From NCBI GenBank assembly GCA_963788335.1, contig CAWBGM010000005.1, positions 45,275 through 109,274 of the forward strand: a stretch of DNA of 64,000 nucleotides, in the 5' to 3' direction. Both the position numbers and the translations under genes were made by a program. The stretch is from Terriglobia bacterium. Lineage in GTDB: Bacteria > Acidobacteriota > Terriglobia > Acidiferrales > UBA7541. The notes below the pieces were generated by a model. It had not been told where the DNA came from, searched no databases, and saw nothing but the letters and a program-made list of their open reading frames with translations. Shown here piece by piece: positions 1,546 through 53,891 of this stretch (its first letter is position 1; each line of letters starts with the position of its first letter).

Positions 1546-1858
1546 CGGCACGCTCGAAGGGAGGATTGTAACACGCGGTGCGGGGGGAATCGCGAATTGG
1601 CTGCTCTTCGATGACGGCTCAACTTGAAAATTCAATCCTCCCGCCATGCAGAACAGGGTGCCGCATCCTTCACGATTTTTGTGAAGGGTGGGGGTTTTCT
1701 CCCAACATTCAAGTTTCGTCGATCATTCACTCCAAACCCACACCCTGATGACGACATAAGCTTCGCTGTGAGACGGGATTGTCACGGTGCTTTAGAAAAC
1801 AGGATGTCAAATATATTCAATGAGTTATACTTCCCGGGATCCAGATGGACTGGAACCC

Positions 1859-11167: not shown

Positions 11168-12676
11168 ATGCCGGTGAAAAAACAGCTGATCGTGATCTGC
11201 GTGACGCTCGTCCTGGCCGCGACGACTGCAATCGCGCAAAACGCAAGCCCGGACGCAAGCACTGCGATCAGGAACGCGGTGAAAGCAATGGGCGACGTAA
11301 AATCCATCCGCTATTCCGGCTCGGGGAGATGGGGTGTCGTTGGAATGAGTTGGAATCCCACGTCCCCCTGGCACACCACGGTGCTAAATAGCTATACGCG
11401 AACCATTGACTATGCGACGGGGTCTTCGCGTGAGGACACAACGAGGAATCAAGAGAATCCGCCCGTACTTGGCGGCGAAGCCCCTTACGTGGACGAGATC
11501 GTGGAGGGCCATGAGGTCGTCGGAAAATACGCGTGGAATCAACCGGTAAACGCGCACCCCACGCTTCCGCCCGATGTCACCCAACCAGCGCCTGCCGCGG
11601 TCGAGGAACGAAATCTTCAGATCATTCTCACGCCGCACGGATTCCTGAAAGCCGCGCTGGAGAATCACGCCACGGCAAAATCGGCGACAGAAGGCAACGA
11701 GAAGGTCACCTTGCTTACGTACATGGCCGGGAAATACAAAATCGTGGGCACGCTGAATAGCAAATCCATTTTGACGAAAATCGACACATGGATGGACAAC
11801 CCGGTCCTGGGCGACATGCTCGTCGAAACGAAATTTCTGGATTACAAAGATTTCAATGGCGTGAAGTTTCCCACGCACATCGTTCAGGAGCAGGGCGGCT
11901 CGATGACGCTGGACCTGAACGTGAAAGACGTACAGCCCAACGTGGCGAATGCGACGCTGCGAGTCCCTGAAAATGTGCTCAAGGCCACGGTCCGTCCGGA
12001 GACGGCGAAGTCCGAAAAGATGGCCGATGGCGTCTGGTTTATTCACGGGGGGCACAACAGCGTTCTGGTCGAGTTCAAGGATTTCCTGGCGGTTGTGGAT
12101 GCCCCGGTCGATGAAGCGCGATCGGTTGCGGTACTTGCGGAAGTGAAACGGCTCGTGCCGGACAAACCGGTCAAGTACGTGATCAACACGCATCATCATT
12201 TCGATCACTCGGGCGGATTGCGGACGTATGTCGCCGAGGGCGCCACGGTGATCACGCATGAGAACAACAAGCCCTACTATGAAACCGTGTGGAAATACCC
12301 TCACACGATTGCGCCGGACAGGCTTTCGGAACATCCGCGCGAGCCGACGTTCATTACTTTTAAAAATAAGTATGTGCTGACCGATGGAACGCGCAATCTG
12401 GAAGTGCACCTCGACTTTGGCGACATGCACGATCAGTTTTTATCGTTCGCGTGGCTGCCGAAGGAAAAAATCCTGATCGAGGCGGACGATTTTTCTGGCT
12501 GGTATATCACTCCCCTGTCGCTGGCCATGTGGAATAATTTGTACGGCAATCTCCAGCGGTTGGGAATTGAGCCGGAAACCATCGCGCCGTTGCATGGCGA
12601 CCCCACGACAATGGCGATCTGGCTGAAGACGCTGCGAGACAGCATCGATCAAATTACCGATTTCAAGGAGTTTTAG
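11168..12676 (+). CDS. Secreted MBL-fold metallo-hydrolase with ~280-aa N-terminal domain of unknown function
   Basis: 502-aa ORF with the signal MPVKKQLIVICVTLVLAATTAIA. The canonical HxHxDH motif is present in INTHHHFDHSGGLRTY, with later His residues in DFGDMHDQ and APLHGD. It has the same architecture as 23663, 25225 and 26786. Confidence 0.85.
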   Translation: MPVKKQLIVICVTLVLAATTAIAQNASPDASTAIRNAVKAMGDVKSIRYSGSGRWGVVGMSWNPTSPWHTTVLNSYTRTIDYATGSSREDTTRNQENPPVLGGEAPYVDEIVEGHEVVGKYAWNQPVNAHPTLPPDVTQPAPAAVEERNLQIILTPHGFLKAALENHATAKSATEGNEKVTLLTYMAGKYKIVGTLNSKSILTKIDTWMDNPVLGDMLVETKFLDYKDFNGVKFPTHIVQEQGGSMTLDLNVKDVQPNVANATLRVPENVLKATVRPETAKSEKMADGVWFIHGGHNSVLVEFKDFLAVVDAPVDEARSVAVLAEVKRLVPDKPVKYVINTHHHFDHSGGLRTYVAEGATVITHENNKPYYETVWKYPHTIAPDRLSEHPREPTFITFKNKYVLTDGTRNLEVHLDFGDMHDQFLSFAWLPKEKILIEADDFSGWYITPLSLAMWNNLYGNLQRLGIEPETIAPLHGDPTTMAIWLKTLRDSIDQITDFKEF

Positions 12677-12851: not shown

Positions 12852-14618
12852 ATGATGCGCACCACGAAAAATAGTAATTTTCCGCGGCATCTCGCAATGA
12901 CCTGCATGGTCGCTTTGATGCTGGCATGCTTTTCCGTTTCAGCTTCGGCTCAGCAGCCTACTCGCGGCACGATCACCGGAAAGGTGACGGCCGATCAGGG
13001 ACAAGTCGTTGCGTTCCGCGTCGCCGCTCATAATCTTGACTTGCAGCTCTGGTACACGGTGTTCACAAACAAGGGCAACTACATCGTTCCGCAGGCACTG
13101 CCCGGAAATTACGACGTTTTTGTACAGATGGGCGGCTATGACTCCCCGGTCACGAAGGTGTTCCTTGCCGCCGGCGGAAGCCAGACTGCAAATTTTGCAA
13201 TCACCAGAAAAACGGGGCCGCCGACCGGCCCGGATGCAGGCGTGAAGATCGATTACGTCAACAGCATGGACGACATATATCCGCCCGGCCCGGGCCTCAG
13301 CCTGATTCGTGCTAACTGCATCGGCTGCCATGCCGAAAATTTCAATAATTTCGGCCACATGAAGCTTACGCGCGAAAAATACATGGAAGGCATCGAGCAG
13401 ATGACGGAGACCGGTCCCGGCTACAACGCTTTTGTTTTGGCGCTGGGGCGCACTCACTTTACCAAACAGGACAAGGATTTGATGGCCGATTATCTGGCCT
13501 CGCACTTCGGCCCCGGAGTCGTCGAGAAGCGGTTGCGCATCGATCCCATCCAGTGGGATGAGGACGCGGCGTCCAAGGCGATTTACGTCTCGTACGATAT
13601 TCCGAAGGACCTGCCGATTTCTCCCGGGGGAGACGTAATTGGCGCGCCGATGGTGGATGGCGTGATTGCTCAATATAAAGTTCCGAAGGAAGGCACCACG
13701 CACCACATGGGTTCCTCTTTCATTTCACCGCTCGACGGCAACATCTGGTTCAGTTCGCGTACGTCCAGTTCCCTGCTGCGTCTTGACCCGAAGGCGGAGA
13801 GCGCGGACCGCTGGAAGAACTATCCGATCAAGGGCGATGCGTACGTGCACCCCGACGGCGTCGGCGTCAATAAAGAAGGCCATGTATTCTGGGCCGAACT
13901 GAAAACCGGTCGCATGGGCGAACTCGATCCGGTCACCGGAAAACAGATCCGCTACTCATTGCCTGAACAGGCAGGGGCGCTGCATGAAGTGGTCGTCGAT
14001 AAGGACGGCAACGTCGGCTTCGACTTGATCTACGGCGCGCTATTCGGACGCCTGGATGTGAAGACAGGAAAAATTCACATGTACCCGACGCCGACGCCGG
14101 ACAACGGCCTGTACGGAATGGCGATCGATCAATCGGGCAATATGTGGGCCGCCGGATGGCAAAAAGGCACGATCAACAAGTGGGACGTGGAGACCGAATC
14201 GGTGAAGGAATATCCGGTGCCCAATGCCTGGGGACAGATTCGCCGCATCGGCGTGGACTCGAAGGGAGTCGTGTGGGTTTCCGAATACACGTCCGGAATC
14301 CTCGGCAGCCTCGATCCTGGAACCGGCAAGCTCACCGAATACAAAATTCCCTACAACGGCGCGCAACCCTATGACGCCTGGCCGGACAACGACGACAATC
14401 TCTGGATGGGCGATGCAAATCACAACTGCATCATCAAGTTCGACCAGAAGACAAAACAATTCAGCTACTATCCAATGCCGCAACCCGGGCAGAGCATCAA
14501 CAAATTCCATATGGCCGCGGACAACACGATCTGGTTTGGAAGCCGTGCGGTGAAGATCGTGACCGGGGTTCACTTCTATCCGAATGGCTTCAGCGGCGGC
14601 GCTCAGGTAATGCCGTAG
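12852..14618 (+). CDS. Secreted CarboxypepD_reg-like domain + single CXXCH motif + Vgb/NHL-like beta-propeller protein
   Basis: 588-aa ORF with a signal ending ..SVSASA. The Ig-like region is GTITGKVTADQG..GNYDVFVQMGGYDS. The heme-c type motif CIGCH sits at 13317..13331. The C-terminal half has repeated D..GN.W/G..W.. propeller-type segments. It is a paralogue of 52254..53891. Confidence 0.7.
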   Translation: MMRTTKNSNFPRHLAMTCMVALMLACFSVSASAQQPTRGTITGKVTADQGQVVAFRVAAHNLDLQLWYTVFTNKGNYIVPQALPGNYDVFVQMGGYDSPVTKVFLAAGGSQTANFAITRKTGPPTGPDAGVKIDYVNSMDDIYPPGPGLSLIRANCIGCHAENFNNFGHMKLTREKYMEGIEQMTETGPGYNAFVLALGRTHFTKQDKDLMADYLASHFGPGVVEKRLRIDPIQWDEDAASKAIYVSYDIPKDLPISPGGDVIGAPMVDGVIAQYKVPKEGTTHHMGSSFISPLDGNIWFSSRTSSSLLRLDPKAESADRWKNYPIKGDAYVHPDGVGVNKEGHVFWAELKTGRMGELDPVTGKQIRYSLPEQAGALHEVVVDKDGNVGFDLIYGALFGRLDVKTGKIHMYPTPTPDNGLYGMAIDQSGNMWAAGWQKGTINKWDVETESVKEYPVPNAWGQIRRIGVDSKGVVWVSEYTSGILGSLDPGTGKLTEYKIPYNGAQPYDAWPDNDDNLWMGDANHNCIIKFDQKTKQFSYYPMPQPGQSINKFHMAADNTIWFGSRAVKIVTGVHFYPNGFSGGAQVMP

Positions 14619-23294: not shown

Positions 23295-23662
23295 TGTCTG
23301 CCTTCGCGGTATTGACCGCTGAAAACGAGTCTCGCCGGGCGAGTCCCGGAGAACTTCGCCCAATCCCATTCCGGATTCCTGATTATAAGAAATTCGATTC
23401 GTGGGCCAGCATACAGCCGGGTGGTTCAGAATACAATCTCGCGGCGAAGGCCCGCCACGAAGGCTGTAGCACAGGCACCCGTCGCGGCGAATGCCTCTGC
23501 GACTAAATCGTTGTGACAAATCCGGTCCCAGCGTATGATGCCAAACCGAGAAATCAAAATCAGGCATTACCGATATTCACTCCGTCAATTTAACACTTGC
23601 CGGACAGAGCAATCGAAACGCAATTGATCGACGAAGAGTCATATATCTTGGGAGGAAGTTTC

Positions 23663-25171
23663 ATGCGCAAATGGGTAACCCTCGCACTTTTCGCGGCGCT
23701 GGCAACACCCCTGGCCGCGGCCGATAACAAACCAGGCACGCTGGAAGCGGCGACCGAAGCGCTCGGCGCCGATCACATCCGCTCTGTTGAATTTTCAGGG
23801 ACGGGATATTGGTACCAATTCGGCCAGGAGCCGGACCCGAATGCTCCGCCGCCGCAATTTGCGGTGACCAGTTACACAGCCTCGATGGACTACAACTCGG
23901 CGACTTCCCACATCCAGAGAGTCGCGCATCAATTGCTCGACCCCACGCGATGGCGTCCCGTGCCGCTTGTGGCGCCGGGAAATGGGGGAGGCGATGGGAA
24001 TCAGGAGTTCGTGGCCGGAGGCATTGCATGGATTCTCGGCGCGCCCGGGGGGCCGGCGACTGGATTGGCGGCAACCGCCATTACGGACGCTAAAAATGCC
24101 GAGGAACGCACGATGGAAATCTGGGCGACGCCGCAAGGTTTCCTGCGAGCCGCCGCAGTGAATCATGCCACCACTAAACCCATCAATGGTGGCGGCACCG
24201 AAGTAACTTTCCTAATGGGCAAGCATAAAGTCATCGGGAAAATTAATGCGAGGAACGAAGTGTATCTGGTGTCCTACTGGATTGATAACCCCGTACTGGG
24301 CGATATGTTGTGCCAGGCCGGGTTCACCGAATACCGCGACTTCGGCGGCATCGTATTCCCTGCTCACCTGGTCCGCGTGATGGGCAACAAAGTACGGCTC
24401 GACCTCAACATCTCGTCCGTGAAACCCAACGCGCCTGTCGTCATTCCTGTGCCTGAGGGAATGCGCGAAGCCCAGACCGCCCCTGTGAAGGTCACCGCGG
24501 ATAAACTCGCGGATGGGATTTACTGGCTCAAGGGATTTCAGTGGCACAGCGTCGCCGTGGAACAGGGCGATCACATCGTGATGATCGATGCCCCACTCGA
24601 TGAAGATCGCTCGCTCGCCGTCATTGCAAAGACCAAGGAGTTGATCCCGAACAAGCCGATCACCTACCTGATCAACACTCACGCGCACTTCGATCACGCG
24701 GGCGGCGTGCGAACCTATGCCGCTCAAGGCGCGACCATTGTTGCCCATCCAATAGCGCAGGCGTTTTACGAGCGGGTGTGGCGCAATCCGCACACGCTGA
24801 ACCCGGACCTGATGGAGACTTCGAAGAAGACCGCCAAATTTCTGACCGTCACCAACGGCAAGCTCGTGCTGAACGATCCCAAGCGCCCCGTGGAAATTTA
24901 TGAACAATTGAATATGGGGCACAGCGATAGCATGGTCTTTGTGTATTTGCCGGTGGAAAAGTTCCTGGTTCAGGCGGATTCGTGGAACACGGAAGCCCTT
25001 AGCGCTCCCAGGCTGGACACCATCGGCGGAGAATACGTGAACCCGTACAACGTGAATCTGTACGACAACATCGTGCGTTTGGGTCTGGATATGCGCCTGA
25101 TGATTCCATTGCACGGACCTCGCACGACGACGATGCAGGAACTGAAGGACGTCATTCTGCTGCCGCAATGA
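23663..25171 (+). CDS. Secreted MBL-fold metallo-hydrolase, tandem copy 1
   Basis: The start context is gggaggaagtttcATGcgc, and the signal is MRKWVTLALFAALATPLAAA. The metal motif is INTHAHFDHAGGVRTY, with a later His in PLHGPRTT. Confidence 0.85.
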   Translation: MRKWVTLALFAALATPLAAADNKPGTLEAATEALGADHIRSVEFSGTGYWYQFGQEPDPNAPPPQFAVTSYTASMDYNSATSHIQRVAHQLLDPTRWRPVPLVAPGNGGGDGNQEFVAGGIAWILGAPGGPATGLAATAITDAKNAEERTMEIWATPQGFLRAAAVNHATTKPINGGGTEVTFLMGKHKVIGKINARNEVYLVSYWIDNPVLGDMLCQAGFTEYRDFGGIVFPAHLVRVMGNKVRLDLNISSVKPNAPVVIPVPEGMREAQTAPVKVTADKLADGIYWLKGFQWHSVAVEQGDHIVMIDAPLDEDRSLAVIAKTKELIPNKPITYLINTHAHFDHAGGVRTYAAQGATIVAHPIAQAFYERVWRNPHTLNPDLMETSKKTAKFLTVTNGKLVLNDPKRPVEIYEQLNMGHSDSMVFVYLPVEKFLVQADSWNTEALSAPRLDTIGGEYVNPYNVNLYDNIVRLGLDMRLMIPLHGPRTTTMQELKDVILLPQ

Positions 25172-25224
25172 ACCCGCAACGACCGGCAATACATCATGGC
25201 GTCAAACATGGATTGGAGCGTTTC

Positions 25225-26730
25225 ATGCGCACGTGGATAGCTCTTCTGATTTTGGCGGCCGCGGCCACGACACTCGCGGCGGCCGCCAAGCAATCGGGAA
25301 CCCTTGAGGCTGCCACCGAGGCGCTCGGCGCCGATCACATCCGCTCGATCGAATTTTCCGGCACCGGAAAGTGGTATCTGTTCGGCCAGGAACCCAATCC
25401 GTATGCCCCACCGCCGGAATATGAAGTGACCAGCTATACGGCCTCGATGGACTTCAACTCAGCCACCTCGCACGTCCAGCGTGCCGCGAGAGAGTTGACC
25501 GATCCCACGCGATGGCATCCGGTGCCCCAGGTGGCTCCGGGAAATCCGGGGGGTGCGGGGAGCCAGGAGTTCGTGGCGGGAGGAGTCGCGTGGACTCTCG
25601 GTTCGCCGGGAGGAAATGCAACCGGATTGCCTTCGACAGCCATCTCGGATGCAAAAAATGCCGAGGAACACACGATGGAGATTTGGGCGACCCCGCAAGG
25701 ATTCCTGAGGGCTGCGGCGGCCAACCATGCCACGACGAAGCCGATCAACGGAGGCGGGAGCGAAGTCACGTTTCTGATGGGAAAGCACAAAGTCATCGGG
25801 AAAATCAACTCGAGGAACGAAGTCTATCTCGTGTCCTACTGGATCGATAATCCGGTGATGGGCGATATGTTGTGTCAAGCCGGGTTCACCGAATACCGGG
25901 ACTTTGGCGGGATCGTGCTCCCGAGCCACATTGTCCGTGTGCAGGGCGGAAAAGTGCGCTTGGATCTGAACGTGTCATCGGCAAAAGCCAATCCGCCTGT
26001 GGTGATCACAGTGCCCGAAGGGATGCGTGAAGCCATGACCGCGCCTGTAAAGGTCACGGTGGACAAGCTGGCGGACGGCGTTTACTGGCTTCGCGGATTT
26101 CAATGGCACAGCGTTGCAGTCGAACAGGGCGATCACATTGTGATGATCGATGCTCCGCTGGATGAGGCGCGCTCGCTGGCCGTGATTGCCAAGACCAAAG
26201 AAACAATCCCGGGCAAGCCGATCACCTATCTGATCAACACACATGCGCACTTCGATCATGCCGGTGGCGTGAGAACCTATGCGGCGCAGGGAGCGACGAT
26301 CGTTACGCTTCCGATGAACCAGGCGTTTTATGAACGCGTGTGGCGCAATCCGCATACACTGAATCCGGACCTGCTGGAGACATCGAAGAAGACCGCGAAA
26401 TTTTTGCCCGTCACCAACGGCAAACTCGTACTGAGCGATAGCAAACGGCCCGTCGAGGTGTATCAGCAAGTCGGAACAGCGCACAATGACGCCATGGTCT
26501 TTGCGTGGCTGCCGGCCGAGAAAATTCTTGTTCAGGCCGACGCGTGGAACACCGAAGCGCTGACTGCGCCGCGCCTGGATACGATCGGCGGCGAATACGT
26601 GAACCCCTACAACGTGAATCTGTACGACAACATCGTGCGACTCGGCCTGGATATGCGCTTGATGGTTCCCCTGCACGGACCGCGCACCACAACGATGGAT
26701 GAACTGAAAAACGTGATTCTGCTGCCGTAG
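25225..26730 (+). CDS. Secreted MBL-fold metallo-hydrolase, tandem copy 2
   Basis: The start context is ggagcgtttcATGcgc, and the signal is MRTWIALLILAAAATTLAAAA. It has the same INTHAHFDHAGGVRTY motif and is collinear with copy 1 at high identity. Confidence 0.85.
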   Translation: MRTWIALLILAAAATTLAAAAKQSGTLEAATEALGADHIRSIEFSGTGKWYLFGQEPNPYAPPPEYEVTSYTASMDFNSATSHVQRAARELTDPTRWHPVPQVAPGNPGGAGSQEFVAGGVAWTLGSPGGNATGLPSTAISDAKNAEEHTMEIWATPQGFLRAAAANHATTKPINGGGSEVTFLMGKHKVIGKINSRNEVYLVSYWIDNPVMGDMLCQAGFTEYRDFGGIVLPSHIVRVQGGKVRLDLNVSSAKANPPVVITVPEGMREAMTAPVKVTVDKLADGVYWLRGFQWHSVAVEQGDHIVMIDAPLDEARSLAVIAKTKETIPGKPITYLINTHAHFDHAGGVRTYAAQGATIVTLPMNQAFYERVWRNPHTLNPDLLETSKKTAKFLPVTNGKLVLSDSKRPVEVYQQVGTAHNDAMVFAWLPAEKILVQADAWNTEALTAPRLDTIGGEYVNPYNVNLYDNIVRLGLDMRLMVPLHGPRTTTMDELKNVILLP

Positions 26731-26785
26731 TACAGTTGGTGCAAAAAAGAACTGCTCGGACCTCTTACACATGTTGGAGCGTTTC

Positions 26786-28289
26786 ATGCGCATCTGGATA
26801 GCATTTTTGTTGTTCGTGACTTCGACCGCCGCGCTCGCCGCCGCCGATCCGCAAACGGGAACTCTGCAATCGGCAACCGCAGCTCTTGGCGCCGATCAAA
26901 TCCGTTCCCTTGAATTTAAAGCAACTGGAAAGTGGTTTCGATTCGGCCAGGAACCGAATCCAAATGTTCTGGCGCCGGAGTACGAAGTCACCGACTACGC
27001 GGCAACGATTGACTACGACAATGCCGCGATGCGCGTCCACCGGGTGAGCCAGCCGGTGATCGATCCCGCCCGCTGGCGCCGTGTCCCCGAATCCGTTGGA
27101 AATGTGGACTCCGAGGGAGAGGCCAACGAGTTTGTGGCTGATGGAGTCGGCTGGATTCTCGGTCGGCCCGGCGGACCGGGAACCGGCTTGCCTGTGGCGG
27201 CCATTCCGGACGCAGGAAACGCCGAAGAGCGCATGATGGAAATCTGGGCGACGCCGCAGGGATTTTTACGGGCGGCCGCAGCGAACCACGCGACTTCGAA
27301 ACCCATCCTCGGCGGCAGCGAAGTCAGCTTCCTGATGGGAAAACATAAATTGATCGGCAAGATCAACGCGCGGAATCAGGTTTACATGGTTGATTACTGG
27401 ATCGATAACCCGGTGCTCGGGGACACGCTCTGCGAAGCCGGCTTCTACCAATATCGCGACTTCGGCGGCGTAATGTTTCCGGCGCACATTGTGCGTGTGG
27501 TGGCCGGGAAAATCCGGCTGGAGCTTAACGTTTCGGCAGTAACGGCCAATCCTCGCGTCGATATTCCGGTTCCGAATGGAATGCGCGAGGCGATGACGGC
27601 GCCCGTCACGGCGACGGCGGAAAAGTTAGCCGACGGGGTGTATTGGATTCGAGGCTGGCAGTACCACAGTGTCGCCGTCGATCAAGGCGACCACATCGTT
27701 GTCATCGACGCCCCGTTGAACGAAGCGCGTTCGCTGGCCGTAATTGCGAAGGTTAAGGAAACAATTCCGAACAAGCCGATTCGATTCCTGATCAACACGC
27801 ATGCGCATTATGACCACTCAGGCGGCCTCCGCACTTACGTGGACGAAGGCGCGACGATCGTAACAATGCCCGTAAATCAGGAATTCTACGAGGATGTGTG
27901 GCGTACCCCGCACTCACTGAATCCGGACCGGCTGGAGATCTCCAGGAAAACTGCTAAGTTCCTTCCGGTGGTCGATGGCAAACTCGTGTTGAAGGATAGC
28001 AAGCGTCCCGATTGAAATTTATCATCAGGTGGGCACCGCGCACTGCGACGCCATCGTCATGGTCTATCTACCGGTGGAGAAAATCCTTGTGGAAGTGGAT
28101 GCGTTTAATACAGAGGCGTTGACCGCGCCGAGAATCGACAGCATTGCCGGCGATTTTGTCAGCCAGTACATCATGAATCTGAACCGGAACATCCTGCGCT
28201 ATAAACTGGACGTCGCCCGGATCGTTCCCTTGCATGGCCCGCGCACGACGACAATGGCGGAACTACGCAAGGCGATCCTCTCGGAGTGA
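26786..28289 (+). pseudogene. MBL-fold metallo-hydrolase, tandem copy 3, interrupted by a +1 frameshift at ~28010 (pseudogene or sequencing indel)
   Basis: ORF 26771..28015 ends ..KLVLKDSKRPD*. ORF 28029..28289 continues the homology in the next frame. Reading aag cgt ccc [g] att gaa att tat cat cag gtg ggc restores KRPIEIYHQVGTAH, against KRPVEVYQQVGTAH in copy 2. The metal motif INTHAHYDHSGGLRTY is intact. Confidence 0.8.
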
Positions 28290-28340
28290 GCAATCTATTT
28301 TCGTTCCGACGTGTTGTTGCAGGGTCGCATCCGGTTTTCA

Positions 28341-28411
28341 GTAGCCCAGGCTTCAGCCTGTGGAGTTTCCTTGCCTCGAATCTGAACCCAACAGGCTGAT
28401 GCCTGTGCTAC
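28341..28411. repeat. Paired copy of the GTAGCACAGGC repeat family, MITE/BIME-like
   Basis: The left arm is gtagcccaggcttcagcctgtgg. The right arm is acaggctgatgcctgtgctac. The spacer is about 28 nt. It lies between convergent genes. Confidence 0.7.
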
Positions 28412-28474
28412 CGAAAACCAACGGTGCATCGCTATCTGGGCACATCTTAGACGATTCTTATTTCCTGACGAAAA

Positions 28475-29695
28475 TCACTGCTTCGCGACAAAAAGAATGC
28501 AACTCGGCTCCGGGACATCCGTGAGAATTTTCCCCGTCGGTGTCAGCATCCCGGTTTTCGGATCAATCGAGAAGACGGCAATGTTCCCGCCATATTCATT
28601 CCCCACAAACATGTATCTATCGGAAGGATCGAGCGCGAAGTTGCGCGGCGTGTCTCCCAGCGACGAAACGTGCTGCACCGGAGTGAGCTTTCCCGTTGCG
28701 GCATCCACGGAAAATATATTAATGGTCCCCGCCGTGTGCGAAGCGCTCAACGTCGCGCCCACGCCGCGGCTCGACGTGTACACGAACCTGCCCGTCCGAT
28801 CCACTTGAATCTCGGAACCCGCGCTCGGCCCGGATTCGCCTTCCGCAACCGGCGCCGTCTGGATTTCTTTGAGCGTGCCTTTTGCTGCATCATATGCAGC
28901 GGTCGTCACTTCCATCGAGCTACTGATCATCGAAACGTATTTCCCATTGGGGTGAAACACCAGGTGGCGCGGCCGCCATCCAATTTCGGGATGCGAAAAT
29001 GGCTCGCCATTCTGTTCCAGAGTCCCGGTCGCGTGATTGATCCGATACACAAATATTTTCCCCAGGCCAATATTGCAGACCAGCAGAAAACGGCCGTCGG
29101 GCGAAAACATGACGCAGTGATTGTGCGGATCGGTCGGGCTTAGTCCATTTTCATCCGGAGCAATCTGGGGACCCGCCGCCGTCCCGTGATGTTCGACGAA
29201 GCCAGCCGCTTCACCCAGCGACCCGTCCGGATGAATCGGAAATGTGGCCACGCTTCCACTGCCGAAATTTGCAGCTGCCAGTATCTTCCCTTCTTTGTCG
29301 ATCGAAAGATGAGCAGGCCCTTTTCCCTTGGTCGAAACTTTATTCAGAAAAGTGAGTTTGCCGGTCGTTCTATCCATCGCATACGCGGTGACGGTATTTC
29401 CCGGATCGGTTTTGCTTGCGTGCTCATTGGCGGCATACAGAAAGCGATGATTCGGGTGCTCGGCGAGCCACGAGGGATTGTTGGCCTCCTGAATCAGCCC
29501 AAGCGGAACCAGGTTTCCGGTTGACGGCGTGAAGCGATATCCATAAATGCCCTTGCTCGCGACGCGCGTGTAGGTTCCGAGATAAACGATGTAGCTCTTC
29601 GCGCCGGAGTCAGCCGCAATTCCAAGTAAGGGGAGAATCCCTGCGGCAGCCAGCACAACAATTGCAACACGTCGAGTTCGCTCGCTCCACATCAT
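28475..29695 (-). CDS. Secreted 7-bladed beta-propeller lactonase family protein (Pgl/YbhE-like)
   Basis: 406-aa ORF with a signal ..VVLAAAGILPLLGIAADS. It then reads YIVYLGTYTR..SKGIYGYRF.., with further strings ..HPNHRFLYAAN.. and ..GKGPAHLSID.., typical of the Lactonase (PF10282-type) family. Its ATG overlaps the stop of the upstream gene (ATGA). Confidence 0.75.
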   Translation of the reverse strand: MMWSERTRRVAIVVLAAAGILPLLGIAADSGAKSYIVYLGTYTRVASKGIYGYRFTPSTGNLVPLGLIQEANNPSWLAEHPNHRFLYAANEHASKTDPGNTVTAYAMDRTTGKLTFLNKVSTKGKGPAHLSIDKEGKILAAANFGSGSVATFPIHPDGSLGEAAGFVEHHGTAAGPQIAPDENGLSPTDPHNHCVMFSPDGRFLLVCNIGLGKIFVYRINHATGTLEQNGEPFSHPEIGWRPRHLVFHPNGKYVSMISSSMEVTTAAYDAAKGTLKEIQTAPVAEGESGPSAGSEIQVDRTGRFVYTSSRGVGATLSASHTAGTINIFSVDAATGKLTPVQHVSSLGDTPRNFALDPSDRYMFVGNEYGGNIAVFSIDPKTGMLTPTGKILTDVPEPSCILFVAKQ

Positions 29696-31857
29696 TCACC
29701 TCGCACGTTGTGGCCGGGCATTTCCGGCATTCTATCAGGCGCACCCGCCGGTTCATTCGCCGCGGGCGCCGCAGGCCCCGATCCCCGCTCGACAACTGTG
29801 GGAGGCGCGGAGTCGATTCCCGTTCCCGTCACGACAATCTGACCGATCATGAAGGAGTGAGGCAGACACGCATAAGAATACGTTCCCGGCCGATTGAATG
29901 TGATCGAGGCCGACTGGCCGCCGCGGAGCATTCCGGTATCCCATCCGCCGCCATCGGCGGAAGACGCGTTGTGAATCTGCTTGCCGTCGTTTGTGAACGT
30001 CACTTTCGTTCCGGCGGGCACCGTGATGCGGCCCGGCGTGAAGGAATAATCGGCGAGTTTCACGGCGTTCGTCGGTACCAGCGGCCCCTCGACTTCAACA
30101 ACCGTCGCCGGCGGTTTCGGCGCTTCAAATGGATGCAACCGGTTGCCGGGCGATCCCCTCAGCGAAAAAACCCACACCATGTCGCCTTTGGCTGAGTTCG
30201 TCTGGATGGAGACGCCGCCGGCGGCGATGGCTACGTATTGAGTGCCATCGATTTCATAGGCGATCGCGGGAGCGTCCGCACCCGCGCCGGTTTGCCATTG
30301 CCACAGCAGTTCTCCGGTCTTGCCGTCGTACGCCTGAAAATTTCCATCCGGCTCGCCGTGGAAGACCAGGCCGCTGGCCGTTGCCAACGCTCCGCTGCCC
30401 TGCCCGACGGAGTAGGGCATTTTTTTCTGCCATACAATTTTGTTCGTGCGGGAATTGATCGCGGTAAATGTACCTGAGTAGTGCGCGCCGATCGGCGGGC
30501 CCAGATTCAATCCGATTCCACGAGTGATTCGAGGTGACGGGCGAATCGCGGCGGTCGCATAAAAATAGCCGGTCTTGGGACTGTACGCCATCGGCGCCCA
30601 ATTCGTTCCGCCGTTTCCGCCCGGCGCGATCAAAATCGGGTGATCGTAAAATGCGGCGAAGATGCATTTCGTCACCCATCCGGCCAGCGGATCGGGACAC
30701 TGCGGCATTAGTGCGTCGCCGCGCGGAATGGGCTGTGTTGGAGAAAATGCAACATGCGGATCCTGCTCGACCGGCTTCTCGTCAATGCCGATCAGTGGCT
30801 TGCCGTTGGTGCGGTCGAGCATATAAATCCATCCCGTCTTGCACGCTTCGGCAATTCCCTTGCGCTTTACTCCGTCGTACGTCTGATCGAAAAGAACGAC
30901 GGGGCTTGGGCAATCGAAGTCCCACATGTCGTGATGCACCACCTGGAAATGCCACGCGTAGGTGCCGTCCAGATGCAGCGCCATGATCGACGAGCTGAAT
31001 AAATTATTTCCGGGGCGATTGTCGGTGGCCCCGCTGGGCAGAACGGGATTGCCTGTGCTGAAATAAATAAGTCCAAGGTCGGGATCGATCGCCGGAGTTT
31101 GCCAGACGCTCGCGCCGCCGTGCAGGTAGGCGCCAGCGCGATTCGGATCGGAGTCTGTCGGCGCGGGCCATGTATCGCCGCCAAGTTCTCCGGGGCCAGC
31201 CGCCGTCCAGAAATGCCACAGTTCTTTCCCAGATTTCCCATCGAGCGCCGTGACCTTGCCGCGCGCGCCCATGTCGCCGCCGGAGACGCCGGTGTACACG
31301 ACGCCGTTGTAGTAGAGCGGCGCGGAAGTGATCGTGTAGCCGTCTTGCCAATTGCCGATGCGCGTTTGCCAGATCAGTTTCCCGGTCTCAGCATCCAGCG
31401 CGACGAATGTGCCGTCGAGATAACCAAGAAAAACTTTTCCTTCGCCGAGCGCGACACCGCGATTGTCCCACCCGCAGCAGACCGTGTTGATCCCCTGATC
31501 GATGTTGGACCGATGCTCCCAGATAATCGCTCCGGTTTTTGCATCGAGCGCGTAAACGTCGTCGTTCCCGCTGGCCAGATACATTACGCCGTCTTTCACC
31601 AGGGGCGTTGCTTCGAGGGAATATTTGCTGCCCAGGCCGGAGCCCAGATGCGTCACCCAAACGCCTTTGAGGTCTTTCACATTGGCGGGAGTGATCTGCT
31701 CCAGCGCAGAATAGCGTGAATTATTCCAGTCGCCGCCGATGGTCGTCCATTCCCTCCCCGCGTCCGGGCGTGAATTCGATTGAGACTGCGCATTCACTCC
31801 GGGGATCAGACCTAAAAAACCAAACGCAACGACAGCTGCCACGTTTTGTGAACGCAT
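29692..31857 (-). CDS. PQQ-dependent (quinoprotein) alcohol-dehydrogenase-family 8-bladed propeller fused to a C-terminal type-1 copper cupredoxin domain
   Basis: 721-aa ORF with the signal MRSQNVAAVVAFGFLGLIPGVNA. Quinoprotein strings are W..GGDWNNSRYS, the vicinal Cys pair NTVCCGW, STGNP and HHDMWDFDC, plus repeated A.D..TG...W W-motifs. The C-terminal part reads TVPAGTKVTFTNDGKQIHN...GTYSYACLPHSFM, giving ligands H, C-x2-H-x2-M. Confidence 0.85.
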   Translation of the reverse strand: MRSQNVAAVVAFGFLGLIPGVNAQSQSNSRPDAGREWTTIGGDWNNSRYSALEQITPANVKDLKGVWVTHLGSGLGSKYSLEATPLVKDGVMYLASGNDDVYALDAKTGAIIWEHRSNIDQGINTVCCGWDNRGVALGEGKVFLGYLDGTFVALDAETGKLIWQTRIGNWQDGYTITSAPLYYNGVVYTGVSGGDMGARGKVTALDGKSGKELWHFWTAAGPGELGGDTWPAPTDSDPNRAGAYLHGGASVWQTPAIDPDLGLIYFSTGNPVLPSGATDNRPGNNLFSSSIMALHLDGTYAWHFQVVHHDMWDFDCPSPVVLFDQTYDGVKRKGIAEACKTGWIYMLDRTNGKPLIGIDEKPVEQDPHVAFSPTQPIPRGDALMPQCPDPLAGWVTKCIFAAFYDHPILIAPGGNGGTNWAPMAYSPKTGYFYATAAIRPSPRITRGIGLNLGPPIGAHYSGTFTAINSRTNKIVWQKKMPYSVGQGSGALATASGLVFHGEPDGNFQAYDGKTGELLWQWQTGAGADAPAIAYEIDGTQYVAIAAGGVSIQTNSAKGDMVWVFSLRGSPGNRLHPFEAPKPPATVVEVEGPLVPTNAVKLADYSFTPGRITVPAGTKVTFTNDGKQIHNASSADGGGWDTGMLRGGQSASITFNRPGTYSYACLPHSFMIGQIVVTGTGIDSAPPTVVERGSGPAAPAANEPAGAPDRMPEMPGHNVRGE

Positions 31858-32030
31858 GTTCTTCCCTCTCGCACCATTCTAATTTGGTTGCGCCTCCGAA
31901 CAGATCCGATTAATCAAGAGTTTACTAAATCTGAAGGAAGCATTCATAATTTCCATTCTATGTATCGAGCCATGGTCCGGAATTATCTCAGATTCCATCC
32001 CACTCGGACAAAACCAGAAAATGACATCCA

Positions 32031-32112
32031 GTGGCACAGGCCTCAGCCTGTCGATTTTGATTTCTCCAAATACATAGTAAATTCAATCCCCACAGGCTGA
32101 AGCCTGTGCCAC
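32031..32112. repeat. Paired copy of the GTAGCACAGGC repeat family, MITE/BIME-like
   Basis: The left arm is gtggcacaggcctcagcctgtc. The right arm is cacaggctgaagcctgtgccac. The spacer is about 40 nt and contains aaattcaat. Confidence 0.7.
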
Positions 32113-32293
32113 GTAAACCACGCAGGGATACCGGGAGTACGCTCATTTTGCGTTTAGCTAAACTGAGTCGCTGTCCATGCTCCCGAGATGTTCCCGAAAT
32201 GTTGAAAACGGCGGCCGCCGCGTATAAGGTAGCAATCCTAATGTAATGCCGTTAAAAGGATAAAAAGATACTGGCCACGCGGAGCCGCGCAAA

Positions 32294-34069
32294 ATGGCAA
32301 GCGACACCCACCCGAACCCGCTCTTCCTTTTCGCGAAGATGGTGCTCGCCCCGGCGCTATTTTTTCTGGCGTTCTTTTTTATTCTAACTTATCCCGCGTT
32401 GTTGAAATTCAAGACGCATTTTTACGCGGACCAGGGCGATGGCTTGCAGAACGTCTGGAATCTCTGGTGGGTTGAAAAAGCGGTTACCCAATTCCATCAA
32501 TCGCCGTGGCACACCACGTACCTGCACTTCCCCTATGGAACGACGCTGATCGGGCACACGATGAACTCGTTTAATGGGTTCGTAGCGATCGTGCTGTCTC
32601 AATTCCTGTCCCAGGTGCCCGTTCACAATGTGATTGTGACGTTTTCCTTCGTAGCAGGAGGTGTTACGGCATTTCTGCTGGCCCACCATTTTACGCACTC
32701 GTACTGGCCAAGCATCATCGCGGGTTATATCTTCACGTTCTCGAATTTTCATTTTGCTCACGCGGAAGGCCATCTGCAGATCGTGTCTCTGGAATGGATT
32801 CCTCTCTTCGTGCTCCTCTGGCTGAAGTTGCTGGCAAAACCTACGATTGCCTTGGGCGCAGCCGCGGCGGGAGTTCTGTTTCTGGTAATCCTCTGCGACT
32901 ATTACTATTTCTTTTATTGTGTTTTGACGGGACTGATCGCCGCCTTATGGTTTCATCGCAATGAGGAAGGCCCTTTTTCATTCTCCAACAAGGAATATTG
33001 GGGCCCCCTCGGTGTTTTTGCCGGCCTGTCGCTTATGACATCGGGTATTCTCGCGGGCTCGCTCGTTTGGGTAACGCTGACAGACGGGCTGGTCGGCAAT
33101 GCCAACCCTGTGGATTATTCCCTGGACCTTCTTGCGCCATTCATCTACGGAGGGCACTGGAGGTTTGCCGCTCTCACGAGATCTTTCTGGTCACGCGAAA
33201 CCGGAAACATCCACGAAAATAGTGTTCATCTGGGTCTGTCCGTCGTATTTCTTTTGGTCCTTGTCTGGCGAATGAGAAACTTTTCCGATTTTAGCGAGGT
33301 TAAGATTTTTTTCGTTCTCAATGCCTTCTTTGCCGTAATTGCAGTGGGACCGATCTTACACATCGCGGGCCAACAGATCCTACCGTGGTTGCCGTGGCCG
33401 TATGCATGGATGATGATCGTTTTTCCTCCCATGAGGGTGGCCAGCGACCCGATCCGGATGATGGTTATGGTTTTTCTGTGCGCCGCGGTAATTAGCGCCT
33501 TCGGATTTCGATTTTTGTTTCGCGGGACACGCAGGCAGAAAGTGTTCGCGTCAGTTCTTGTTGCGATCCTCTTCGTGGAATATCTACCAAAGGCGATCCC
33601 GACGTCGCTGGTTCCCGTTCCTGAATATGTCCAGGTATTGAAGAACCTTCCCGGGAGTGACGGGGTATTGGACCTGGTTGCAAATCCGGCGCTGAACCGG
33701 TTTTATGACGCAGCCCCGTCGTTGAATCTCTTTTATCAGACGGTTCACGAAAAGCCACTGGCGTTCGGTTACCTGGCGAGAATACCGAAGAGCGTCGAAA
33801 AAAAAGACCGTGACCTTGCAGAGGTCATTCAGAATGAGAATTTCTCCCGTTTGTGGCCCGATTATCACTTCCGGTACATCGTGAGCGGGGATCGATCTCG
33901 CGTTCTAAGGTCGTTGCCCGGCGTTGAAGTTGTCTGGACCGATGGACAAATCTCACTATTTGATACCTCCCGCTCGGAATCGCACCTCGCCGAAAGTCGC
34001 AGTATCACATCTGGATTAGACCCGAATTGTCAGGGGGATTGCGCACCCCCGCAGTCGGGTATAAATTAG
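32294..34069 (+). CDS. Polytopic membrane protein, GT-C-like glycosyltransferase suspected
   Basis: 591-aa ORF with at least 10 hydrophobic segments, for example LAPALFFLAFFFILTYP, GFVAIVLSQFL and VTAFLLAHHF. An early loop reads FYADQGDGLQNVWNLWW. I did not recognise a named family. Confidence 0.5.
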   Translation: MASDTHPNPLFLFAKMVLAPALFFLAFFFILTYPALLKFKTHFYADQGDGLQNVWNLWWVEKAVTQFHQSPWHTTYLHFPYGTTLIGHTMNSFNGFVAIVLSQFLSQVPVHNVIVTFSFVAGGVTAFLLAHHFTHSYWPSIIAGYIFTFSNFHFAHAEGHLQIVSLEWIPLFVLLWLKLLAKPTIALGAAAAGVLFLVILCDYYYFFYCVLTGLIAALWFHRNEEGPFSFSNKEYWGPLGVFAGLSLMTSGILAGSLVWVTLTDGLVGNANPVDYSLDLLAPFIYGGHWRFAALTRSFWSRETGNIHENSVHLGLSVVFLLVLVWRMRNFSDFSEVKIFFVLNAFFAVIAVGPILHIAGQQILPWLPWPYAWMMIVFPPMRVASDPIRMMVMVFLCAAVISAFGFRFLFRGTRRQKVFASVLVAILFVEYLPKAIPTSLVPVPEYVQVLKNLPGSDGVLDLVANPALNRFYDAAPSLNLFYQTVHEKPLAFGYLARIPKSVEKKDRDLAEVIQNENFSRLWPDYHFRYIVSGDRSRVLRSLPGVEVVWTDGQISLFDTSRSESHLAESRSITSGLDPNCQGDCAPPQSGIN

Positions 34070-44397: not shown

Positions 44398-44868
44398 CTA
44401 CTTTCCGCCGTTGGCCCACTTGGCCATGGCCTGCCAGTCCGGATCGTCTTTGGTTTCAAACTGCCGACCGCCGCTGTGTTCTACGGTCAAGTCGCCGCCA
44501 GCCAGTGGCGAGAGCGGGCGAAGAAGCAATTTGCTGTTCATCGGGTCGTCGCCGTTGACGAGTTTTGAAACATTCTCGAAAATCTGACGGGATTGCTCCT
44601 CGGTCCACGTCTTGCTCCCGGTCGAAAGCGGCACCAGGTATTGAGGACCATTTCCCGACCCGTGGCACGAGTAGCACCGTGCATGGCCCGGCCGGTCCTT
44701 CAGAAAAATGGGCTCGATGCGCGCCTTGAAAACTTCATAATCAAGATTCGGCGCTGCTTTGGCCGGCGCTTGCCTTGCGGGCGCGCCGCTCGACAGGGCT
44801 GCGCTGAACACAATTCCCGCAAAAACAAAAAGAGCGGCAACTTGTCTGGCATAAAGTCTGGATATCAC
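44398..44868 (-). CDS. Small secreted CXXCH protein (c-type cytochrome-like, Planctomycete-cytochrome-C-like motif)
   Basis: 156-aa ORF with a signal ..FVFAGIVFSAALSSGA. The string IEPIFLKDRPGHARCYSCHG places CYSCH at 44662..44676. A later string is LLLRPLSPLAGGDLTVEHSGG. Confidence 0.6.
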   Translation of the reverse strand: MISRLYARQVAALFVFAGIVFSAALSSGAPARQAPAKAAPNLDYEVFKARIEPIFLKDRPGHARCYSCHGSGNGPQYLVPLSTGSKTWTEEQSRQIFENVSKLVNGDDPMNSKLLLRPLSPLAGGDLTVEHSGGRQFETKDDPDWQAMAKWANGGK

Positions 44869-52253: not shown

Positions 52254-53891
52254 TTAATCCAGCGTCTCCACCTTCGCAATTTTCGCCTCATGATTTTCCC
52301 CAACCCACAGAACCGGACGCGCACCCGTGTTATCGACTTCCACCCTGCGCACATTTACTCCTAATCGCGGCAAAAGGTACTTTCTGAATTCTCCCGTTTT
52401 CGGATCGAGTCGCACGATCAACTCGCTGGTCATTCCGCCGGCCCACACATTGCCCTGCTTATCTGCAACCACATCGTAGGGCCCGTACCACGGAACCGGA
52501 ATTGGCCACTCCTGAAATTTCTCGGTCTTCGGATCGAACACGGCAATCGTCTTGGCGTAGTACTCCCCGATCCATACCCGATTCTCGCTGTCCAAATGCA
52601 TTCTTCTCGGCCCTGAATTCGGAGTGGGCGGCGTAAACCGCGAGACCTTTCCGGTTGCGCCCTCCACACGATACAAATCGCCTCCGGAAATATCCGCCTC
52701 GTACAGGTTGCCGTTGGAGTCCGCCGTGATTCCATAGGGGTGATGGCGCGGCCCCTCGTACTTTTTATTCATGAACTCATCGGGCAGCTGATTAAACTTC
52801 GTCGGTTCTCCAGTCATCGGATCGATTCTGTAATCAAAATCGCTGGCGGTGTCTTTGACCCATACCGTTCCATCGCGGCCAACACTTATGAAATCGGCTC
52901 TACCGGAAGGAATATTGAAATCGGTGAAACGTTCCGCTTTCACGTCGAACTTGGCGATGCCATTCCAGTTGTGTCTTCCAACCCAAAGGTTTCCCTGCGG
53001 GTCCCATTCGAGACATTGAAACGCGGATGGATACCCTGCTTTGGTGACCGGGTCTTGCCATTCTTTCACTTCGCCGGTTGCCGCATTCAATCGCCCAATA
53101 ATCCCTTCCAGGAAATCCGAATACCAGATCCTCCCCGATTTGTCCGGCGACACATCGTGCGGCTCGGCGTCATGCCTGGGCAAATCGTATTCCGTCACGA
53201 TAACTTTCGTGTCAGCGCCGCGAGGCCTCGGCAGCGTTTTCAATTCAAAATTGTTTGTCGCATGCGCGCTCAGATTGATCGAACTCAGATATTCGGCGAA
53301 TTCCTTGTTTCCCAGCATGCCGCCGCCCCGGCGATCCGGGTTTTTCACGGGCTTATCGATTTTGCTGATTTGGTCCCATGTATTCATCCGAGTAAGCGTA
53401 ACCATCCAACCGGCGGCGTCATACGTGCTCTTCATGACCGGGGCCAAGGTGTGGCACTGGGAGCAGGTCAAAAAAAGATATTCCTTCTGTTGCTCGGTTC
53501 CCGGAACGCTCATCAACCACTCGACATCGCTGAGCTGGGAAGCGAGAGCCTGCGTTTTGTGAAGCTTTAAATTTTTCTCCCTCTTCCCTTTTCCAACCGC
53601 TACCGGAATATTCTCTTCCGCGGCTTCATAGCCGATGGCGCGGATCGACAAGAGATATTTTCCAGGGGCGAGGCGGCCCGGCGGGAATGTGAATCGCCCC
53701 TTCGAATCGCTCACCACGGTAACGGTAATCGTTCCGGGGGACTGCTTGGCGCTCACCAACACGCCTTCCATTGGACCCTCCGCGTCCGACGTCACAATGC
53801 CGGCCAATTGGCCCGCCGTCGCATTGGCCGCGCGCGTTGCGCCCGACAAACTGGCGATTGCCAATACGAGCAATAAAAATCGTCTCACCAT
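52254..53891 (-). CDS. Secreted CarboxypepD_reg-like domain + single CXXCH + Vgb/NHL-like beta-propeller protein
   Basis: 545-aa ORF with the signal MVRRFLLLVLAIASLSGATRA. The N-terminal domain is GQLAGIVTSDAEGPMEGVLVSA..GKYLLSIRAIGYE. CSQCH sits at 53451..53465. The propeller has repeated D..GN.W segments. It is a paralogue of 12852..14618. Confidence 0.7.
   Translation of the reverse strand: MVRRFLLLVLAIASLSGATRAANATAGQLAGIVTSDAEGPMEGVLVSAKQSPGTITVTVVSDSKGRFTFPPGRLAPGKYLLSIRAIGYEAAEENIPVAVGKGKREKNLKLHKTQALASQLSDVEWLMSVPGTEQQKEYLFLTCSQCHTLAPVMKSTYDAAGWMVTLTRMNTWDQISKIDKPVKNPDRRGGGMLGNKEFAEYLSSINLSAHATNNFELKTLPRPRGADTKVIVTEYDLPRHDAEPHDVSPDKSGRIWYSDFLEGIIGRLNAATGEVKEWQDPVTKAGYPSAFQCLEWDPQGNLWVGRHNWNGIAKFDVKAERFTDFNIPSGRADFISVGRDGTVWVKDTASDFDYRIDPMTGEPTKFNQLPDEFMNKKYEGPRHHPYGITADSNGNLYEADISGGDLYRVEGATGKVSRFTPPTPNSGPRRMHLDSENRVWIGEYYAKTIAVFDPKTEKFQEWPIPVPWYGPYDVVADKQGNVWAGGMTSELIVRLDPKTGEFRKYLLPRLGVNVRRVEVDNTGARPVLWVGENHEAKIAKVETLD

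Follow-up and report, generated by a model that had tools for sequence, protein, structure and literature searches.

Which molecule takes up the electrons that a dehydrogenase with pyrroloquinoline quinone (PQQ) as its cofactor removes from the substrate? The acceptors of PQQ dehydrogenases are often uncertain and are established enzyme by enzyme. The question is raised by a gene on the minus strand of a 64,000-nucleotide stretch of contig CAWBGM010000005.1 from a Terriglobia bacterium (Acidobacteriota; assembly GCA_963788335.1), which is referred to here as the window and whose first letter is position 1. The gene encodes a protein in which the beta-propeller of a PQQ dehydrogenase is followed by a cupredoxin domain with the ligand set of a type-1 copper site. 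A natural fusion of this kind points directly to the acceptor, and intramolecular electron transfer from PQQ to copper could be followed at the 600 nm band. It is probable that the protein is a periplasmic PQQ dehydrogenase in which the tethered, amicyanin-like type-1 copper would act as the built-in primary electron acceptor.

Architecture of the fused protein

A preliminary description of this DNA had proposed that a PQQ dehydrogenase is fused to a cupredoxin domain, and this is borne out by a single open reading frame of 721 codons in which PF01011 is combined with the two Pfam families Copper-bind and Cupredoxin_1. The protein is composed of the following parts.

29692-31857, minus strand: whole gene of the PQQ-dehydrogenase/cupredoxin fusion, 721 amino acids (open reading frame list with translation; Pfam), with the stop codon TGA at 29692-29694
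31789-31857, minus strand: putative Sec signal peptide, residues 1-23 (MRSQNVAAVVAFGFLGLIPGVNA, followed by QS), assigned by inspection of the sequence only
30160-31752, minus strand: PQQ-dehydrogenase beta-propeller, residues ~36-566 (PF01011, TIGR03075, alignment to PedH, Foldseek)
30070-30159, minus strand: Pro-rich interdomain linker, residues 567-596 (LRGSPGNRLHPFEAPKPPATVVEVEGPLVPTNAV region), lying between modelled strands
29827-30069, minus strand: type-1 copper cupredoxin domain, residues 597-677 (KLADYSFTPGRITVPAGTKVTFTNDGKQIHNASS...RPGTYSYACLPHSFMIGQIVV; PF00127, PF13473)
29973-29971, minus strand: cac codon of the copper ligand His629, as read from the DNA, like the three that follow
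29868-29866, minus strand: tgt codon of the copper ligand Cys664
29859-29857, minus strand: cac codon of the copper ligand His667
29850-29848, minus strand: atg codon of the copper ligand Met670
29785-29826, minus strand: residues 678-691 (GTGIDSAPPTVVER), a conserved stretch that extends the domain and includes one more predicted beta-strand (687-691)
29695-29784, minus strand: disordered Ala/Pro/Gly tail, residues 692-721, with a Met/His end (...DRMPEMPGHNVRGE) and a low predicted local distance difference test score (pLDDT)

The interval from 29827 to 30069, to which the preliminary description had assigned the copper domain, maps exactly to residues 597-677 with the sequence quoted there. 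The blue-copper ligands that it named, His629 and Cys664-x2-His667-x2-Met670, agree with the codons, including that of Cys664 at 29866-29868, and the Pro/Ala-rich tail that it reported is present as residues 692-721. In an alignment of 121 family sequences, on which all residue conservation counts given here are based, each of the four ligands is kept in 119-121 sequences.

Profile and structure matches, which had been named as checks on the domain assignment, both uphold it, and the agreement goes far past what chance would give. Copper-bind (PF00127) matches residues 596-676 with an E-value of 1.7e-10 and 41.6 bits (gathering score 21.2), and Cupredoxin_1 (PF13473) matches the same residues with an E-value of 4.1e-9 and 36.9 bits (gathering score 27). 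The domain taken alone is modelled with a pLDDT of 92.7, and the best Foldseek match of this model is the C-terminal cupredoxin of 9cck (template modelling score 0.74, root-mean-square deviation 1.5 A, 30% identity), followed by amicyanin and plastocyanin, all three with a Foldseek probability of 1.00. The protein of 9cck, a multicopper oxidase/NirK-like enzyme of Nitrosopumilus maritimus, likewise carries a C-terminal cupredoxin tethered to a redox enzyme as a built-in electron-transfer partner; however, its domain is tethered to a catalytic partner that is itself a copper enzyme and is thought to be the donor, whereas in the fusion the domain would accept electrons.

The closest relative of solved structure by profile is amicyanin. 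In a profile alignment, His...Cys-x2-His-x2-Met occur in order and align with the ligands of amicyanin, the best PDB match of the domain profile is amicyanin 1id2 (E-value 1.9e-13), and amicyanin has exactly the ligand loop of the family consensus, C-T-P-H-P-F-M, the loop of the window protein itself being C-L-P-H-S-F-M. To judge from the short C-x2-H-x2-M loop that the two share, the domain is specifically amicyanin-like. The amicyanin family TIGR02657 is also the top small-domain match in NCBIfam; since its score of 46.8 bits is far below the equivalog cut-off of 110.2, the domain is amicyanin-like rather than an amicyanin orthologue. When 50%-identity representatives were searched with the cupredoxin domain, the leading matches were dominated by poly-cupredoxin repeat proteins. 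Ranked by summed score, its nearest relatives in this library were P0121 (1064 amino acids), P0123 (1154 amino acids), and P0125 (3670 amino acids), which contain 5-12 tandem cupredoxin domains each and, in one of them, PKD domains in addition.

The putative signal peptide comprises a short polar N-region, a hydrophobic core, and V-N-A ahead of the likely cleavage site, so that the fusion protein is probably exported by the Sec pathway and periplasmic. The full AlphaFold2 model has a pLDDT of 80.3 and a predicted template modelling score (pTM) of 0.82, with cupredoxin blocks at 84-97, low pLDDT in residues 1-29, and values below 50 in residues 695-721. In this model the linker is bounded by the final propeller strand (560-565) and the initial cupredoxin strand (598-602), and its residues F577, P580, P582, and P583 are invariant or almost so in the family. 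The additional strand at 687-691 appears in both the full-length and the domain-only model, and V688 and V689 within it are almost invariant. The C-terminal tail terminates in MPEMPGHNVRGE, which is MPEMPGH in the window protein; the tails of the family contain 9.4% His and 5.1% Met, and His is found within the final 12 residues in 107 of the 121 sequences. An H-x-H at the extreme end is frequent among these tails, and some have M-P-x-M-P repeats. The Met/His tail can be likened to periplasmic copper-binding motifs, and it is tempting to speculate that it helps to load the type-1 site.

Occurrence of the fusion in soil and peat bacteria

A fusion seen in a single assembly might be an artefact of assembly or gene calling that joins two genes, and the existence of P0223, a stand-alone secreted cupredoxin of 122 amino acids whose sequence, the post-domain strand included, is 56% identical to that of the fused domain, could be taken in that sense. 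The reading frame across both domains is nevertheless continuous and the linker is conserved. A search of 5.8 billion clustered proteins, for which the figures rest on the 120 clusters listed, found PF01011 together with PF00127/PF13473 in 119 of these closest clusters at 64-86% identity; the clusters sum to approximately 1,330 member sequences from NCBI, JGI, ENA, and Logan assemblies. In contigs representing one genome per species, the fused form was present at 31 loci, all of them in metagenome-assembled genomes (MAGs), and a metagenome scan added about 45 fused contigs. In particular, the independent metagenome contig L084 is 98.0% identical in DNA to positions 23799-32560 of the window and contains the same fused gene with the same neighbours. 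An assembly chimera, which the preliminary description had named as a possible refutation, is excluded by this recurrence in independent assemblies, and the chance that two separate genes were joined artificially is practically nil. The survey of PQQ dehydrogenase homologues that had been suggested there thus reveals the fusion as the rule in this protein family, not a one-off.

The stand-alone cupredoxin itself was located in soil metagenomes at L052 (6001-6363, plus strand), L053, and L054. No PQQ propeller gene was found within 6 kb of it at these three loci, and gene adjacency therefore offers nothing to the idea of a split gene; the neighbours include an ABC (ATP-binding cassette) peptide transporter and a 2-hydroxyacid dehydrogenase-like gene.

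The fused loci in Acidobacteriota belong to Candidatus Acidiferrales (SPRUCE peat), Acidobacteriaceae, and Danish soil bins, and those in Alphaproteobacteria, which account for about half of the fused MAG loci, to Micropepsaceae, Beijerinckiaceae, and Xanthobacteraceae. Peat and soil metagenomes contain the family in abundance; it is confined to uncultured members of these two groups. It is thus a large and uncharacterised family, widespread in soil and peat bacteria. More distant fused forms also occur. L098 (1274-3346, plus strand) and L101 (692-2758, plus strand) encode propellers that are 55-58% identical and cupredoxin domains that keep the His, Cys, His, and Met ligands, and they have no tail; L113 (4180-6219, plus strand) has a propeller of 44% identity and a cupredoxin domain in which Cys is replaced by Asp and Met by Ser. 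The nearest unfused relative, a Bryobacterales protein of 616 amino acids (L031; 45% identity), is devoid of the Cys-Cys pair described below, and a gene for a small c-type cytochrome immediately follows its own gene. This pairing fits the idea that the cupredoxin replaced a separate acceptor.

No description of a PQQ-cupredoxin fusion was found in the openly readable full-text literature, and targeted reading of papers on lanthanide and PQQ enzyme diversity yielded haem-domain fusions only. The architecture is undescribed rather than undetectable, because it is already visible in precomputed Pfam annotations. Where source databases name the proteins, they appear as "alcohol dehydrogenase (cytochrome c)," "quinohemoprotein ethanol dehydrogenase," or "PQQ-binding-like beta-propeller repeat protein." Since the fusion has no haem motif, this family is misnamed by the terms "quinohemoprotein" and "(cytochrome c)", and such automated names would explain why it has been overlooked.

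The active site of the propeller

The propeller is assigned to PF01011 with 306 bits against a gathering score of 26.7, and its best sequence match is the lanthanide-dependent alcohol dehydrogenase PedH (6zcv; HMMER E-value 4e-79). The top structural matches of the full model are the type II quinohaemoprotein alcohol dehydrogenases (ADHs) 1kv9, 1kb0, and 1yiq, followed by PedH 6zcv (Foldseek). In the HMMER alignment to 6zcv (chain numbering), E199, N281, D323, and D325 of PedH correspond to D195, N270, D313, and D315 of the window protein; C127-C128, W252, D313, and K340 align with residues of both PedH and the quinohaemoprotein ADHs, and K340, the basic residue at the position of MxaF Arg331, matches the Lys of the quinohaemoprotein ADHs in the alignment to 1kv9. 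The residues concerned, with their conservation in the family, are as follows.

31474-31479, minus strand: the vicinal pair C127-C128, in 121 of 121 sequences
31273-31275, minus strand: D195, at the canonical Glu position, Asp in 121 of 121
31102-31104, minus strand: W252, the PQQ-stacking Trp, in 121 of 121
31048-31050, minus strand: N270, at the Asn metal-ligand position, N in 77 and Q in 44 of 121
30919-30921, minus strand: D313, the first Asp of D313-F-D315, a motif found in 121 of 121
30913-30915, minus strand: D315, the second Asp of that motif
30838-30840, minus strand: K340, in 121 of 121
30910-30912, minus strand: C316, next to the D313/D315 strand
30841-30843, minus strand: C339, next to K340

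The invariance of the vicinal Cys-Cys, the Trp, both Asp residues, and the Lys indicates that the family has retained the catalytic apparatus of a PQQ dehydrogenase. An Asp two residues past the catalytic Asp (D-x-D) serves recent surveys as a marker of lanthanide dependence (PMC11996626, citing Good et al. 2020), and the presence of this motif suggests that the metal in the active site is probably a lanthanide. The motif D313-F-D315 is shared with the lanthanide PQQ ADHs, being D323-F-D325 in PedH (6zcv/6zcw), a group that also includes ExaF and XoxF. In contrast to the fusion, these enzymes are single-domain proteins with a separate cytochrome c as the acceptor, and E199 of PedH is replaced by Asp195 and the Asn ligand by Gln in 36% of the fusion family. 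The side chains at D195 and at N270 or its Gln counterpart could still coordinate a metal. No lanthanide-uptake genes were recognised among the open reading frames of the window that were scanned.

Some of these features weigh against a functional PQQ dehydrogenase and could be explained if the propeller were cofactor-less or bound no PQQ, i.e., an "empty quinoprotein" of the kind proposed for some Acidobacteria, in which case copper would be the sole redox centre and the protein an electron carrier or metal handler that uses its propeller for docking or binding. The score to TIGR03075, the PQQ methanol/ethanol dehydrogenase family, is 402.9 bits and does not reach the cut-off of 480. The second-best NCBIfam match is TIGR04528, "acido-empty-quinoprotein group A." The metal site is non-canonical, because the Glu ligand is exchanged for Asp throughout and N270 for Gln in 44 of the 121 sequences. 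Moreover, no pqq biosynthesis genes were found among the scanned open reading frames of the window, and the source of PQQ for the Acidobacteriota hosts is not visible there. On the other hand, the score to TIGR04528 is 339.3 bits against a cut-off of 650, and the fusion is therefore not a member of that group; the high score to PF01011 combined with the missed cut-off of TIGR03075 characterises the propeller rather as a divergent member of the superfamily outside the curated subfamily. The residues that serve PQQ chemistry only (Cys-Cys, Trp, both Asp, and Lys340) are invariant in 121 of 121 sequences, which argues against an empty propeller. About half of the family occurs in Alphaproteobacteria, a class reported to make PQQ commonly, and PQQ may also be scavenged from the environment (PMC12124388). 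An empty propeller is accordingly considered very unlikely, and a PQQ-dependent enzyme is assumed in what follows.

The propeller contains further conserved cysteines. C316 and C339 flank the active-site strands and co-vary perfectly, both being Cys in 112 sequences and both absent in 9, and C387 and C398 are invariant. It is likely that C316-C339 and C387-C398 form disulfides, and the covariation of the former suggests an extra disulfide at the active site. To our knowledge, such a disulfide has not been noted in characterised PQQ ADHs.

The copper domain as a candidate acceptor, and the neighbouring genes

The enzymes to which the fusion is most usefully compared are the type II quinohaemoprotein ADHs, represented by ADH IIB and ADH IIG of Pseudomonas putida HK5 and the quinohaemoprotein ethanol dehydrogenase (qhEDH) of Comamonas testosteroni (1kv9, 1yiq, 1kb0). 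These are likewise soluble periplasmic proteins, in which a linker joins a PQQ propeller to a small one-electron redox domain at the C-terminus. Like the fusion, they have the vicinal Cys-Cys and a Lys at the position of MxaF Arg331. By contrast, the fusion, at approximately 30% identity, carries a type-1 copper cupredoxin and no haem c domain with its CxxCH, and it differs further in the D-x-D motif and in the Asp at the Glu metal ligand. No CxxCH haem motif exists in the fusion open reading frame, which leaves haem c absent as an alternative. The fusion thus appears to work like a type II quinohaemoprotein ADH, yet it is not one, as it has no haem domain. Because the cupredoxin stands in the place that the haem domain takes in the related enzymes, the enzyme probably brings its first acceptor along.

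The transfer of electrons from a protein-bound quinone to a type-1 copper has a precedent. Amicyanin (1mda, 1aac, 1id2), whose ligand loop is that of the family consensus, is reduced by the quinone cofactor of methylamine dehydrogenase in a complex of solved structure (1mda), and 1mda is among the PDB matches of both the sequence search and the domain-structure search. Unlike the fused domain, amicyanin is a separate protein, and it docks on an enzyme with tryptophan tryptophylquinone (TTQ), not on a PQQ enzyme. Type-1 copper sites have potentials of approximately +250 to +350 mV and PQQ/PQQH2 of approximately +90 mV, so that transfer from PQQ to copper would be thermodynamically favourable. 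Type II quinohaemoprotein ADHs reportedly pass their electrons to a cupredoxin, azurin (PMC8348568).

A feasible model may be as follows. A substrate, probably an alcohol, an aldehyde, or a cyclic hemiacetal, would be oxidised at the PQQ/metal site in the propeller, and PQQH2 would be re-oxidised by the tethered type-1 copper in two one-electron steps. The conserved Pro-rich linker would hold the copper domain over the propeller, where type II quinohaemoprotein ADHs hold their haem c, and from the reduced copper domain the electrons would go on either to a soluble cytochrome c or straight to a terminal oxidase. In this model, PQQ and copper would both be bound by the protein.

An active PQQ dehydrogenase might also pass its electrons to a separate cytochrome c, with the cupredoxin serving in copper binding or buffering, sensing, structure, or docking instead of as the acceptor. 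At several Acidobacteriota loci, a gene for a small c-type cytochrome lies approximately 2.5 kb downstream of the fused gene, and the His/Met-rich tails suggest metal handling. L113, which retains the domain after losing the Cys and Met ligands, demonstrates that a cupredoxin domain can persist without a type-1 site. Against the model with copper as the acceptor, it also weighs that no conserved downstream acceptor gene was found by clustering the open reading frames that flank the fused loci, and that a pTM of 0.82 is insufficient as proof of how the model places the two domains relative to each other. However, the cytochrome gene is neither adjacent to the fused gene nor found family-wide, the His, Cys, His, and Met ligands with the loop spacing of amicyanin, typical of electron-transfer cupredoxins, are kept in at least 119 of the 121 sequences, and the domain sits where quinohaemoproteins have their haem domain. 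A cupredoxin without a role as the acceptor is therefore regarded as unlikely, and the tethered copper as the primary acceptor of the dehydrogenase is preferred.

On balance, we are inclined to regard the family as the first natural "quino-cupro-protein," i.e., a PQQ dehydrogenase with a probable lanthanide dependence, whose built-in acceptor is a covalently tethered, amicyanin-like type-1 copper in place of haem c. It would be common among the Acidobacteriota and Alphaproteobacteria of acidic peat and soil and would have been overlooked. If so, three cofactors would be combined in one polypeptide, namely PQQ, Ln3+ or Ca2+, and Cu. The family may then underlie part of the periplasmic oxidation of alcohols, aldehydes, or sugars in acidic soils, and may tie this oxidation to the availability of lanthanides and copper. 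For direct-electron-transfer biosensors and biofuel cells, there is a demand for enzymes that carry their own mediator (PMC6472588, PMC8348568). Beside the known haem-mediated types, a PQQ enzyme mediated by copper would offer one of higher potential.

The immediate neighbour of the fused gene in the window is the following.

28475-29695, minus strand: downstream gene for a secreted 7-bladed propeller of the lactonase family (PF10282, 309 bits)

Its ATG overlaps the TGA of the fused gene (ATGA, as read from the sequence), and the two genes, translationally coupled in this way, are therefore probably co-transcribed. This arrangement was found in the window and in L084 only and at none of the 31 other fused loci, and the lactonase was accordingly rejected as a clue to the function of the family (sugar to lactone to acid); it is a lineage-specific hint only. 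A divergently oriented gene for a transporter of the major facilitator superfamily (MFS) lies beside the fused gene at 13 of the 31 loci in the clustering of flanking open reading frames; it is closest to the aromatic-acid/H+ symporters (TIGR00895, 213 bits, below the cut-off of that family). A secreted SnoaL_3/DUF4440 protein is encoded near the fused gene at 6 of the 31 loci clustered. Because these patterns are only partial, the neighbourhood was rejected as a guide to the substrate or the acceptor. As hints, the neighbours fit a pathway in which an alcohol, an aldehyde, or a hemiacetal is oxidised and the resulting acid or lactone is hydrolysed or imported. A candidate cytochrome c gene of the window itself (44398-44868) has no Pfam match and was discarded as unrelated to the cytochrome encoded near the fused gene of L009.

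The window surroundings are rich in genes for secreted hydrolases (GH31, alpha/beta hydrolase, several of the metallo-beta-lactamase (MBL) fold, and amidohydrolase) and also contain a TonB-dependent receptor of the Acidobacteria type. Three tandem secreted paralogues of approximately 500-520 amino acids (23597-28289, plus strand) adjoin the lactonase/PQQ operon; in each of them a metallo-beta-lactamase domain lies at the C-terminus and the N-terminal half, approximately 300 amino acids, has no annotation, and a fourth copy lies at 11168-12676 (plus strand), 11 kb upstream of this trio. An MBL-fold gene in the window is split into 26771-28015 (414 amino acids) and 28029-28289 (86 amino acids), on the plus strand in different frames. 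The same gene is intact in L084 (505 amino acids), which indicates that the copy in the window is frameshifted, either as a pseudogene or through a sequencing error.

Two secreted paralogues at 12852-14618 (plus strand) and 52254-53891 (minus strand) combine CarboxypepD_reg with a Vgb-lyase/SGL-like propeller and have one CxxCH each, and a homologue of this CarboxypepD_reg/propeller type is encoded directly downstream of the fused PQQ gene in L002 (10328-12079, minus strand). Finally, the overlapping tandem genes at 1820-4546 and 4543-7236 (plus strand) encode proteins of approximately 900 amino acids each, with near-identical Ser/Thr-kinase-like N-termini (...GAGGMGEVYQA...), and a similar gene of 904 amino acids adjoins the fused PQQ gene in L001.

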